Of a stretch of 64,000 nt of DNA, positions 14,249-17,432 are shown piece by piece; the first letter of the stretch is position 1, and the number at the start of each line of letters is the position of its first letter. The notes under the pieces were generated by a model. It saw only the letters and a program-made list of their open reading frames with translations. It did no database searches and had not been told where the DNA came from. Both the position numbers and the translations under genes were made by a program. This DNA comes from Treponemataceae bacterium (GTDB taxonomy: Bacteria > Spirochaetota > Spirochaetia > Treponematales > Rectinemataceae). The DNA lies in NCBI GenBank assembly GCA_963677895.2, contig CAXXGJ010000038.1, positions 96,001 to 160,000 on the forward strand, in the 5' to 3' direction.

Positions 14249-14419
14249 ATGGCATACAAAGTTACCGATGCCTGCGTCAACTGCGGCGCCTGCGAAGGCG
14301 AATGCCCCGTCACCGCTATCAGCGAGAAGAACGATGCCCGCTGGATCGATCCCGACAAATGCATCGATTGCGGAACCTGCGCCTCCAGCTGCCCGACCGA
14401 AGCTATCGTCGCCGGCTGA
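14249..14419 (+). CDS. Clostridial-type 2[4Fe-4S] ferredoxin
   Basis: MAYKVTDA-CVNCGACEGECP...CIDCGTCASSCP; AAGGAG RBS. Confidence 0.96.
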   Translation: MAYKVTDACVNCGACEGECPVTAISEKNDARWIDPDKCIDCGTCASSCPTEAIVAG

Positions 14420-14459: not shown

Positions 14460-14487
14460 AAAAAGCTGCCCTCGCGGGCAGCTTTTT
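14460..14487. terminator. Bidirectional intrinsic terminator
   Basis: A5-GCTGCCC-TCGC-GGGCAGC-T5. Confidence 0.85.
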
Positions 14488-14530: not shown

Positions 14531-15859
14531 TCACAGTCTATGCTTCGCGCAGAACGCGTCCAGCACGTCGACGAGATCGGGCTTCCCGATTTCCTGGAGG
14601 TCGTAGCCTACTTTCACGATCGGCTTGTTGATCTTGATTATCCGCGAAAGATCGATCGGCGTCGCGATGAGGACGGCGTCGCAGTCGGTCGCGTTTATCG
14701 TCTTCTCCAGATCCGATATCTGTTCCGCTCCATAGCCCATGGCAGGCAGTAGGGTTCCTATATTGGGATATATCCTGAAGGTTTCGGCCAGCTTGCCGAC
14801 GACGTAAGGGCGGGGGTCCACGATCTGGGCCGCCTGGAATTTGCGCGCCGCCACGACGCCCGCGCCTATTTTCATCATCCCATGGGTGAGGGTGGGGCCG
14901 TCCTCGACGCAGAGAACCCGCTTGCCCTTGATCAGCTCTGGTCTGTCGACGCTTATCGGGCTCGCCGCGTCGATGACTATGGCTTCCGGATTCACTCTCG
15001 TTATGTTTTCGCGTACGGTCTGCACGTCCTCGGGGCTTGCCGTATCGATCTTGTTGATGATGACGACATCGGCCATGCGCAGGCTCGCTTCGCCGGGATA
15101 GAATGAGACCTCGTTGCCGGCTCTCAAGGGATCGGCTACCGTGACCATGAGATCGGGAACATAGAAGGGGAAGTCATTGTTGCCTCCGTCCCAGAGAATT
15201 ACGTCCGCTTCTTTTTCCGCCTGTCTGAGTATCGCCTCGTAATCCACCCCGGAATAGATCACATTGCCCCTCACTACGTGGGGTTCGTATTCTTCCATCT
15301 CTTCGATGGTGCATTTATGGTAGGCCAGGTCTTCCACGGTGGCGAATCGCTGCACTTTCTGGCGCACCAAGTCTCCATAGGGCATGGGGTGGCGGATCGC
15401 CACGACTTTGAGGCCGCGCGCCATCAGCATCTGGACAATCTTGCGCGAAGTCTGACTTTTTCCCGATCCCGTACGCACGGCGCAGACGGCTATCAGGGGT
15501 TTTGTCGACTTGATCTGCGTGTCCTTGGGGCCGAGGAGGGTGAAGGAGGCTCCTGCGGCGTTCACGAGAGCCGAGAGGCTCATGACGTGGGCATAGGGTA
15601 CATCCGAATAGGAGAAAACGCATTCGTCTATGGAAAGCTCAGCTATGAGCCGGGGCAGGTCTGATTCGGCATAAATCGGGATGCCGTCGGGATAGAGGGG
15701 GCCGGCAAGCTCCGAGGGATATTTTCTTCCATCGATATCGGGAATCTGCGCGGCGGTAAAGGCGGCTACCTCGACGGACGCGTCATTTCTAAATCTTGTG
15801 TTGAAGTTATGAAAATCCCTTCCAGCCGCTCCTATGATGATCACTTTTCTTCGCTTCAT
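14531..15859 (-). CDS. COG2403 P-loop enzyme (cyclic 2,3-diphosphoglycerate synthetase-like); probable arginine synthetase ArcE
   Basis: GAAGRDFHNFN, VRTGSGKSQTSR P-loop, RHPMPYGDL, TIEEMEEYEPH, WDGGNNDFPF, EDGPTLTHG; GGGAGG RBS; divergent from arginine deiminase. Confidence 0.75.
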   Translation of the reverse strand: MKRRKVIIIGAAGRDFHNFNTRFRNDASVEVAAFTAAQIPDIDGRKYPSELAGPLYPDGIPIYAESDLPRLIAELSIDECVFSYSDVPYAHVMSLSALVNAAGASFTLLGPKDTQIKSTKPLIAVCAVRTGSGKSQTSRKIVQMLMARGLKVVAIRHPMPYGDLVRQKVQRFATVEDLAYHKCTIEEMEEYEPHVVRGNVIYSGVDYEAILRQAEKEADVILWDGGNNDFPFYVPDLMVTVADPLRAGNEVSFYPGEASLRMADVVIINKIDTASPEDVQTVRENITRVNPEAIVIDAASPISVDRPELIKGKRVLCVEDGPTLTHGMMKIGAGVVAARKFQAAQIVDPRPYVVGKLAETFRIYPNIGTLLPAMGYGAEQISDLEKTINATDCDAVLIATPIDLSRIIKINKPIVKVGYDLQEIGKPDLVDVLDAFCAKHRL

Positions 15860-15974
15860 GCCGAAGGCCTCCCTTGGGAAAGGGCCTTTGCCCCCTCCGG
15901 AAGCTATGATCCGATGTCCACATATACCTGTCAAGATTGCGACATTAAATATGATTTGTTCAAAAAACGTTGAT

Positions 15975-15992
15975 TTTGCATATACATTCAAG
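15975..15992. promoter_or_regulatory. ARG box (ArgR/AhrC operator)
   Basis: TT-TGCAT-ATAC-ATTCA-AG matches TG(A/C)AT-N4-AT(T/G)CA between two arginine-metabolism genes. Confidence 0.7.
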
Positions 15993-16111
15993 CCGAATTT
16001 CCGCTTCGCGAAGTTCATGCAGAAAAGGCCGAGAAAACGACGATAGTTATGCAAAAAGAGCATCGCGGTAAATGTGAAGATTTTTTTTTATTCCTGGTGC
16101 ATACTTCTCCT

Positions 16112-17356
16112 ATGAAAAGTCTGGCGATAGATAGCGAAATCGGCAATCTGCGGCGCGTGATTCTCCATACGCCTGGTCCCGAAATCGAGGCGATGACTCC
16201 GGGAGAGGCCGAAAAGGATCTCTACAACGACATCATTCCCTTGAGTTCGGTCCTGGAAGAGTATCTTCAGCTCAAGAAATTCCTGGCCTGTGTCGCCGAA
16301 GTCCACGAACTCCTGGATCTGCTGACCGACTGCCTTGTCGACGTGGGCAATAAATTCGAATTCCTCACCGATCTGTCGCGCTGCTTTCCTATACGGACCT
16401 CGATGGAGGAGTTCATGGGCATGCCCGCCAGGCAGCTGGCTGAGGCAATCGTCCATGGCGTGCAAGCCCCGGCGAATTCCCTGGCCCATCGCCTGGATGA
16501 GGAAAGCTTCATCTCTAGACCGCTTCCGAACACCTATTTCATGAGGGACAGCGCCGCCGTGATCGGGGACTGCGCCGTATCGGCCGCTACCGCCTTCGAC
16601 GTGCGCATGGTCGAAGCGGTGATCACGCGTTTCATCTTCACCCATCATCAGGACTTCGCGGCCAGAACCCTCCTTTTCGACGGACCTTCGGAGAGAAACC
16701 GCTACATGACCATCGAGGGCGGCGATATCATCGTGCTTTCCCCCACCGTTTTCGCCATCGGGGTTTCGGAACGCACGACGCCCTACGCCGTGGAACGCAT
16801 CGCCAAGAACGCGGCGAGGATTTCGGAGTCGGATATCACGGTATTCGCCGTCGACCTGCCCAAGACGAGGGCGACAATCCATCTCGACATGGTATTCACG
16901 ATGATCGACAGCGACGCGGCACTCGTCTACGAGCCCGCCATCCTCGGGGCGAAGAGAAATTCAGTCTATCGGATCGACGCGGGGAAGGGCGGAAAGCTGA
17001 AGTACAGGGAAGTGGATTCCCTGCTGTCGGGTTTGAAGGAACAGGGCATGGACCTCGCTCCCATACTCTGCGGCAAGGGCCATCGCATCCATCAGCAGCG
17101 CGAGCAGTGGCTTTCGGGCGCTAATTCCTTCGCTTTCGCCCCCGGGAAGATAATCATGTATTCCTGCAACAAGTTCACCGTGGAAGCCTTGTCAGACGCG
17201 GGATTCTCCATCGTCAAATCGGAGAACTTCATAAGCGGCAAGGAATCAGTCGCCGACTACGAACATCTGGCGGTGACCTTCGACGGCATTGAACTGGCGC
17301 GAGGGGGCGGCGGCGCGCGCTGCATGACCCTTCCCGTGGAGAGAGACAAGGTCTAG
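16112..17356 (+). CDS. arcA: Arginine deiminase
   Basis: SEIGNLRRVILHTPG, PNTYFMRD, IEGGD, IHLDMVFT, REQW, ELARGGGGARCMT. Confidence 0.93.
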   Translation: MKSLAIDSEIGNLRRVILHTPGPEIEAMTPGEAEKDLYNDIIPLSSVLEEYLQLKKFLACVAEVHELLDLLTDCLVDVGNKFEFLTDLSRCFPIRTSMEEFMGMPARQLAEAIVHGVQAPANSLAHRLDEESFISRPLPNTYFMRDSAAVIGDCAVSAATAFDVRMVEAVITRFIFTHHQDFAARTLLFDGPSERNRYMTIEGGDIIVLSPTVFAIGVSERTTPYAVERIAKNAARISESDITVFAVDLPKTRATIHLDMVFTMIDSDAALVYEPAILGAKRNSVYRIDAGKGGKLKYREVDSLLSGLKEQGMDLAPILCGKGHRIHQQREQWLSGANSFAFAPGKIIMYSCNKFTVEALSDAGFSIVKSENFISGKESVADYEHLAVTFDGIELARGGGGARCMTLPVERDKV

Positions 17357-17398: not shown

Positions 17399-17432
17399 AA
17401 AAAGCCCTTCCGGCAAAACCGGAAGGGCTTTT
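17399..17432. terminator. Bidirectional terminator between arcA and nrdJ
   Basis: AAAAAGCCCTTCCGG-CAAAA-CCGGAAGGGCTTTT. Confidence 0.9.

Follow-up and report, generated by a model that had tools for sequence, protein, structure and literature searches.

A predicted arginine synthetase (ArcE) orthologue and an arginine deiminase (ArcA) diverge from a shared ArgR-type site array conserved in Rectinemataceae

The 64,000-nucleotide stretch analysed here (the window; positions 96,001 to 160,000 of contig CAXXGJ010000038.1 in GenBank assembly GCA_963677895.2) comes from a Treponemataceae bacterium placed in the family Rectinemataceae by GTDB, and carries two back-to-back genes, arcE on the minus strand and arcA on the plus strand, whose start codons are separated by 252 bp (spacer 15860-16111; Table 1). 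As judged from their sequences, arcE is identified as an orthologue of the gene for arginine synthetase, an ATP-forming arginine deiminase, and arcA as the gene for an intact but divergent arginine deiminase (ADI), so that this divergent pair (divergon) would provide two alternative ways to begin the breakdown of arginine. The pairing is conserved and specific to the lineage, and an ARG box in the spacer is real and conserved across relatives. With a probability of roughly 0.55, the two genes form a two-gear, co-induced system, in which ArcE would be the high-yield route working near equilibrium and ArcA the irreversible bypass, both being activated by the regulator ArgR. Each part is known, while the conserved arcE-arcA pairing with a shared ArgR-type array is not described in the literature searched.

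The minus-strand protein (P0001) shares 63-67% identity over 436-443 aa with 15 Thermococcus proteins of the ArcE cluster, and 63.8% over 436 aa (602 bits) with P0011 from T. peptonophilus, both ends of which match the peptides encoded by the primers for TK2200, the arcE gene of T. kodakarensis. The available part of the paper describing ArcE lists T. peptonophilus with one arcE, and sets the membership threshold against TK2200 at E < 1e-100 and > 380 aa (PMC11032458); P0001 lies within the similarity threshold when the named Thermococcus orthologues stand in as a proxy for TK2200. The exact pattern of the TK2200 forward primer has no match in the genome contigs searched, and a degenerate pattern of the reverse primer matches four loci, comprising three Thermococci arcE genes and one unrelated locus. 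The 90% cluster of these three Thermococci loci has 201 members, which are mostly named cyclic 2,3-diphosphoglycerate (cDPG) synthase or GTPase in the databases. Profile searches with P0001 gave no family in NCBIfam and only a CobW/HypB/UreG match in Pfam.

It is extremely improbable that the gene encodes a true cDPG synthetase, as the database names of the Thermococcus cluster would have it. This enzyme is the sole match of P0001 in a sequence search of the PDB (E 1e-6), and also the top fold match (TM ~0.45), listed together with LpxK (4EHY), of the structure model (pLDDT 91.7) of P0028, a 66% identical homologue which stands in for P0001 in the fold comparison. However, the so-labelled Thermococcus proteins are themselves the ArcE cluster, and the true cDPG synthetase of Thermococcus is a separate paralogue, with which P0001 shares 27% identity locally, over 113-124 aa. 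The paralogue adjoins a kinase-like gene which, from its sequence and position, we take to be 2-phosphoglycerate kinase. In a 78-row tree from a quick IQ-TREE search, which contains long-branch rows, P0001 groups with Thermococcus ArcE, and a long branch with an SH-aLRT support of 100 separates them from two cDPG synthetases. Neither cDPG synthetase nor 2-phosphoglycerate kinase is matched at E 0.01, with Thermococcus queries only, in the host genome (G000; 92.8% complete, 5.5% contamination). The cDPG synthetases of known structure (PDB 8ORU, 8ORK and 9SXB) are thus distant homologues of P0001 and the origin of its usual database label, but are only 15-16% identical in the structural alignment. 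No ArcE structure was found in the PDB, either by sequence or by fold. The P0028 model has an LpxK-like P-loop fold, and a likeness to LpxK is reported for the Thermococcus enzyme in the available text of PMC11032458, which also confirms the reaction that the sequence-only reading of this DNA had given for T. kodakarensis ArcE when it preferred ArcE to the cDPG label; the alignments, the tree and the host gene content support that preference. P0001 is accordingly annotated as an ArcE orthologue, and is predicted to catalyze Arg + ADP + Pi -> citrulline + NH3 + ATP. The cluster representatives include ArcE homologues of 651-806 aa (P0032, P0044, P0051 and P0119), which are possible fusions, and one relative carries two arcE copies, the second of which (G005:C110:3-1250) shares 58% identity with P0001.

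The plus-strand protein (P0002) matches nine proteins in the PDB, all of which are ADIs, and exceeds the Pfam cut-off for ADI. Its catalytic set (Cys-His-Asp/Glu) and substrate-binding Asp and Arg residues align with those of 4BOF, 1S9R and 1RXX, and C404, H257, D146, D259, E202, R165 and R221 are invariant in 117 of 117 sequences (P0002 and 116 of the 120 sequences, these being listed matches of at least 400 aa); the roles of the aligned residues, and their Pseudomonas numbering, are presumed. The earlier claim of an intact ArcA is upheld by these data, and P0002 probably has deiminase activity. Its nearest relatives are labelled as Rectinemataceae-type, one member of the 90% cluster being labelled Hydrogenedentales. 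Against a plain ADI assignment, P0002 scores under both NCBIfam ADI cut-offs (259.9 vs 414 and 241.8 vs 489.1 bits), its clade shares only 36-37% identity with the ADIs of other treponeme-like genomes, and a glycine occupies the position five residues before the catalytic cysteine in 117/117 sequences, where the Pseudomonas and Streptococcus enzymes have arginine. One partner may therefore have changed its job, with the ArcA-like protein, for example, supplying ArcE through amidinotransferase activity or by using another guanidino compound, in which case the two steps would be sequential instead of parallel. This is very unlikely, as the protein retains the length and the N-terminal helical region of ADIs in addition to its PDB matches, the remaining 11 pocket and catalytic positions in the alignment do not vary, and arcE or arcA is kept singly in some relatives. 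G011 has, 1.1 kb from the intact arcA, a broken piece of the gene that contains a TAG stop (G011:C51:20526-20741), the gene between them being presumably of the HepT-like toxin-antitoxin type.

Both genes are present in 31 of the 37 family genomes (host included). They form a direct divergon in 27 genomes and a divergon with inserted genes in two, while in another two they lie on different contigs (at facing contig ends in G017); arcA alone is found in four genomes and arcE alone in two. The direct divergon occurs in 16 of the 21 family genera sampled, and also in two of six genomes of a neighbouring family. Single-gene losses with the flanking genes kept are seen in G008 (arcA) and in G022 and G036 (arcE). 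In the accessible text of PMC11032458 and PMC13260591, ArcE and ArcA are called complementary; the exceptions named are rare (Desulfosarcina, Halolamina and Korarchaeum), and a spirochaete is not mentioned. Within the family, ArcE does not take the place of ArcA in this way. Outside it, the two genes seldom meet. The phylum sample contains arcE in 29 of 301 genomes, and among 32 arcE-positive genomes examined, three encode a full-length ADI (G014, G056 and G116) and two give short, unrelated-looking matches. The arcE-positive genomes of families f18 and f32 have no ADI (0/13 and 0/7), and those beyond the 60-relative set or in family f4 have a full-length ADI in one case of 26 (G116). Of 579 metagenomic arcE loci, the best 80, many of which are short (1 kb upstream is present in only 55 of the 80), include 20 with arcC nearby, 15 with ornithine transcarbamylase (OTC) and one with arcA, which is a family member. 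Three arcE records were found on haloarchaeal plasmids, and neither of the two inspected has an annotated arcA within 9 kb. On one plasmid (NZ_CP147842.1; L240), arcE carries the label cDPG synthase and diverges from arcC, with 32 bp between the two genes.

The window alone has five matches to the 18-bp ARG consensus at three mismatches, a number reached by 15 of 100 shuffles and thus not above chance. The comparison of 28 aligned spacers (the host's and 27 of 29 direct-divergon loci; G003 has no locus) gives a different picture, as an ARG site within one mismatch of the 14-bp core is present in 12 of the 28, against 0.25 on average and at most 1 in shuffles, although kin are not independent. 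The alignment contains a conserved arcE -35-like hexamer in 28/28 spacers and three ARG-like sites 31-32 bp apart. Scored with a matrix made without the host genus, site 1 is tied third in the host genome, within the top five, while only 21 of 3175 long open reading frames (ORFs) have an upstream site scoring at least 13. The top 16 matches genome-wide include rocD, argR, site 1, gdhA, the OTC gene on contig C17 and a carA-like gene (named by eye; its 34-aa stub has no family match), together with peptide and other transporters, an amidohydrolase and hisG-like genes, and argC is found lower down. The motif agrees with the ARG boxes published in the accessible part of PMC4865122. The regulator gene argR is present in the host genome, at G000:C38:536774-537250, and in 34 of 36 relatives; in G014 (97% complete) argR is unmatched, and boxes are missing at arcE, arcB and arcC. 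Neither of the two DcuC/ArcD-family transporter genes of the host has a convincing box. With this consensus, with argR present and with the motif at other arginine genes, ArgR is predicted to bind the spacer array, and the ARG box first noticed in the 252-bp spacer proves to be a palindrome that stands above chance across relatives at a fixed distance from arcE. A contig set (X1), whose RNA origin is a guess, contains pieces that match arcE, arcA and the gene that follows at 90-99%, and is uninformative on expression, on start sites and on strand. Of all ARG-like sites in the genome, the strongest (G000:C2:318343 and 318469; L246) lies between a peptide ABC transporter and an amidohydrolase of the hydantoinase/carbamoylase family, and possibly marks a branch of the regulon concerned with citrulline or carbamoyl-amino acids. 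A leader ORF of 29 codons, the last two of them Arg codons (G000:C2, ~390301-390212, minus strand; L244), lies between the ARG boxes and promoter and the argC gene of the argCJB operon, and may encode an arginine-sensing leader peptide.

Site 1 lies 40-43 bp upstream of the arcE -35 in 24 of the 28 spacers (two scoring under 8), 34 bp in one and 12 bp in two, and is absent in one. The -10 hexamer of arcA is 6-8 nt from the start codon in 18 of 28 spacers, and no Shine-Dalgarno sequence was seen there by eye, so the arcA mRNA is predicted to be leaderless in these relatives; in 17 of the 18 leaderless-type spacers, site 3 lies 22-24 bp upstream of the arcA -35 position, and in the last 44 bp, or two more turns. 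No conserved ARG site overlaps the core promoter of arcE or arcA, a non-conserved overlap being seen in one of 28 spacers. The boxes of arcB (17 of 30 loci) are mostly 12, 20-23, 33 or 43 bp above the -35, with one overlapping the promoter, and those of arcC (18 of 28 loci) mostly 25, 36 or 46 bp above it, with none overlapping. At argG, six of nine box-bearing promoters have a box overlapping the promoter (a set of 11 loci, comprising the host's and 10 of 20 fetched, the others being from more distant families), and the argR box lies within the argR promoter as read by eye. Where arcE and arcA are separated (L120), each has its own box with a score of 16, placed 12 bp upstream in one case and 33 bp in the other, and a single box in G033 lies 12 and 22 bp from the two promoters. 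As the sites are upstream of both promoters and overlap neither, with a geometry as at arcB and arcC, ArgR would co-activate arcE and arcA. The non-consensus motif at the arcA -35 position (window 16074-16112) survives the loss of arcE and of all boxes in G036.

An arginase was not found in the host genome, which encodes argR, argG, argH, argC, argJ, argB, arcC, two OTCs, rocD and gdhA. The genes arcB and arcC, which the sequence-only reading had rightly given as absent from the window, lie on contigs C17, C18 and at C38:493k, so that ArcB and ArcC, the partners of ArcE in the arginine synthetase pathway, are both encoded. Among 36 family relatives, argG is present in 33 and carB in 28, and the divergon genomes without an argG match (G003, G013, G032 and G045) lack a carB match too. 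According to the available parts of the Thermococcus papers, ArcE is argued to be catabolic where ArgG and ArgH exist (PMC11032458), and arginine supplies carbamoyl phosphate in Thermococcus, which the argG-less and carB-less genomes resemble (PMC13260591). ArcE is probably catabolic in the host, since argG, argH, arcB, arcC and argR lie elsewhere in its genome; of the energy-conserving or biosynthetic route proposed earlier, the energy-conserving part is favoured and the biosynthetic part is unlikely. The host carB (G000:C26:3658-6814) is in six frameshifted pieces, likely an assembly error, or else a pseudogene, and is intact in the congeners G001 and G002. Carbamate kinase lies within open frames of 657 and 738 aa in G045:C57:4029-4958 and G041:C2:490-1419, which are possible fusions.

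In the proposed two-gear mechanism, arginine-loaded ArgR on the three-site array would turn on both genes, as well as arcB, arcC, rocD and gdhA elsewhere. ArcE together with ArcB and ArcC would yield 2 ATP per arginine, and would stall upon a rise of ATP/ADP, ammonium or citrulline, as its equilibrium constant (Keq) is only ~10, while ArcA would hydrolyze arginine irreversibly with 1 ATP per arginine, keeping ornithine, carbamoyl phosphate and ammonia flowing while ArcE is stalled. A Keq of 10.1 (total ammonia, 80 C), sigmoidal ADP kinetics and an ammonium Ks of 106 mM (Table S4) are given for Thermococcus ArcE in the accessible part of PMC11032458. If the free energy is unchanged, K is calculated to be 10-15 at 30-37 C. 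At K=10, forward ArcE flux needs a Cit/Arg ratio below ~3 at ATP/ADP=3 and NH4/Pi=1, and below 0.3 at NH4/Pi=10 (illustrative concentrations). With K of about 10, ArcE would pay its extra ATP only at high ADP and low ammonium, while ArcA would always run. The flux split would depend chiefly on mass action and on the kinetics of the two enzymes rather than on reciprocal control of transcription, and the sigmoidal ADP response and the high ammonium Ks of the Thermococcus enzyme would limit premature flux and reverse cycling. The ATP-burning futile cycle foreseen earlier is thermodynamically real, but may be damped by this weak ammonium affinity.

Several observations weigh against co-activation. 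The promoters of the biosynthetic argC and carA-like genes also have upstream boxes, at ~8/29 and 18/39 bp (by eye), and an upstream box position is no proof of activation. Boxes are missing at arcA in G007, G026, G036 and G011, and at arcE in G008 though argR is present there, and a DNA insertion in G007 and G026 has left the array on the arcE side. Six genomes with leadered arcA have 66-110 bp between site 3 and the arcA promoter as called. In the host itself, sites 2 and 3 are weak (Table 1). Moreover, the spacer matrix scores are partly circular, the promoter calls rest on a simple consensus, and the kinetic constants are those of an archaeal enzyme at 80 C. The box-free arcA genes would fit an array that serves arcE only, with arcA constitutive or answering to pH, ammonium or energy state through its non-consensus -35 motif, so that the gears would be partly chosen transcriptionally; the fixed arcE distance also fits, as site 1 and the start of arcA are anywhere from 85 to 219 bp apart. 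This alternative is nevertheless doubtful, as site 3 keeps a fixed phase to arcA in nearly all leaderless-type spacers, arcA has its own strong box in L120, and array remnants are retained at arcA after the loss of arcE in G022.

The reciprocal control predicted by the sequence-only reading, in which ArgR would activate one promoter and repress the other to avoid an ATP-burning cycle, with ArcE perhaps biosynthetic at low arginine, is unlikely. The divergent layout and the shared sites suit it, the upstream boxes of some biosynthetic promoters make repression from upstream possible, and ArcA plus reversed ArcE would amount to ATP hydrolysis, the reversal being plausible above a Cit/Arg of ~3 under the first of the conditions given above. 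However, the conserved sites overlap neither core promoter, both promoters follow the spacing series of arcB, with distances as at arcB and arcC, and each gene has a box of its own in L120. A biosynthetic ArcE is further opposed by the argG and argH genes of the host, and by the four argG-less divergon genomes, in which ArcE would be unable to complete de novo synthesis as they have no carB match. The two enzymes could also be co-expressed as a self-adjusting valve, in which ArcE would harvest its extra ATP at high ADP and low ammonium, whereas when ammonium and energy charge are high, ArcA plus reversed ArcE would spill ATP in a cycle that is either tolerated or of use to the cell. This extension of the two-gear reading is rather unlikely; if true, the valve would be an ArgR-built substrate cycle, sensing energy and ammonium, at one catabolic step.

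The features of the locus are given in Table 1. As a hairpin follows each gene, arcE and arcA are each probably monocistronic. The gene convergent with arcA is presumably ribonucleotide-reductase-like. A small 2x[4Fe-4S] ferredoxin gene (window 14249-14419) converges on the arcE end, and still adjoins arcA in relatives where arcE was lost.

Table 1. Positions of the arcE-arcA divergon and its predicted control elements in the window
Feature	Position	Strand	Basis
Probable bidirectional terminator, a hairpin with A and T tails in the gap separating the ferredoxin gene from the end of arcE	14460..14487	.	Read by eye; absent from terminator-scan list
arcE, predicted arginine synthetase (ATP-forming arginine deiminase) orthologue, 442 aa, protein P0001	14531..15859	-	Open full-length frame
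Shine-Dalgarno-like site of arcE	15868..15872	-	Read from sequence
Sigma-70-type promoter of arcE: consensus -35 15934-15929, 17-bp spacer, -10 15911-15906	15906..15934	-	Top promoter-scan match, 10/12
Main ARG box (site 1), ARG-box-like palindrome, 42 bp upstream of the arcE -35	15977..15990	.	Spacer comparison and matrix score 15.6
ARG half-site (site 2), 31 bp from site 1	16008..16021	.	Half conserved at the same offset in the spacer alignment; weak here, matrix score -0.7
Site 3, a degenerate ARG site spaced 32 bp from site 2 and preceding the arcA -35 position by 23 bp	16040..16053	.	Score 5.1 here; 10-14 in several relatives
Putative arcA promoter: -10 hexamer 16100-16105, -35 position a conserved T-run motif without consensus	16074..16105	+	Spacer comparison; missed by promoter scan
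arcA, predicted arginine deiminase of a spirochaete-specific clade, 414 aa, protein P0002	16112..17356	+	Open full-length frame
15-pair hairpin between arcA and the convergent gene; probable shared terminator	17400..17432	.	Terminator scan, minus-strand listing

Parallel routes of high yield and of high driving force are known from glutamine synthetase-glutamate synthase (GS-GOGAT) versus glutamate dehydrogenase (GDH), and from the PPi- versus ATP-dependent steps of glycolysis. The divergon resembles such pairs, by analogy only, in performing one conversion with two enzymes that differ in their coupling to ATP, and differs in that its two genes are physically linked. The system is close to the ArcE-ArcB-ArcC pathway of T. 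kodakarensis (PMC11032458 and PMC13260591, partial text), with a full-length ArcE orthologue, arcB and arcC, and an LpxK-like fold, but here ArcE coexists with an adjoining ArcA under a shared ArgR-type array. The ADI pathway arcABC(D) is activated by regulators of the ArgR/AhrC family, as stated in the accessible part of PMC4865122, and is matched here by an intact ADI catalytic set and by ArgR-type boxes upstream of catabolic genes, but in the divergon arcA is lone, apparently leaderless and partnered with arcE instead of arcB and arcC. The array also differs from the ~21-bp tandem sites at arcB, arcC and rocD of the same genome in its 31-32 bp spacing. In the literature searched, which left most subscription papers outside its scope, arcE-arcA adjacency, their shared regulation and a spirochaete ArcE are not described, and the available text of PMC13260591 and PMC11032458 does not mention ArgR as a regulator of arcE.

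The discoverers of ArcE, who regarded the two enzymes as alternatives, raised the question of why the deiminase has been kept although it is less efficient (PMC11032458, in the part available). A family which keeps both genes adjacent and, as predicted, co-regulated in most of its sampled genera, with natural single losses, makes the trade-off between yield and driving force testable in one cell. ArgR is the predicted transcriptional regulator for an arcE gene, and with regard to annotation, a gene often mislabelled as cDPG synthase or GTPase could give these spirochaetes 2 ATP per arginine.

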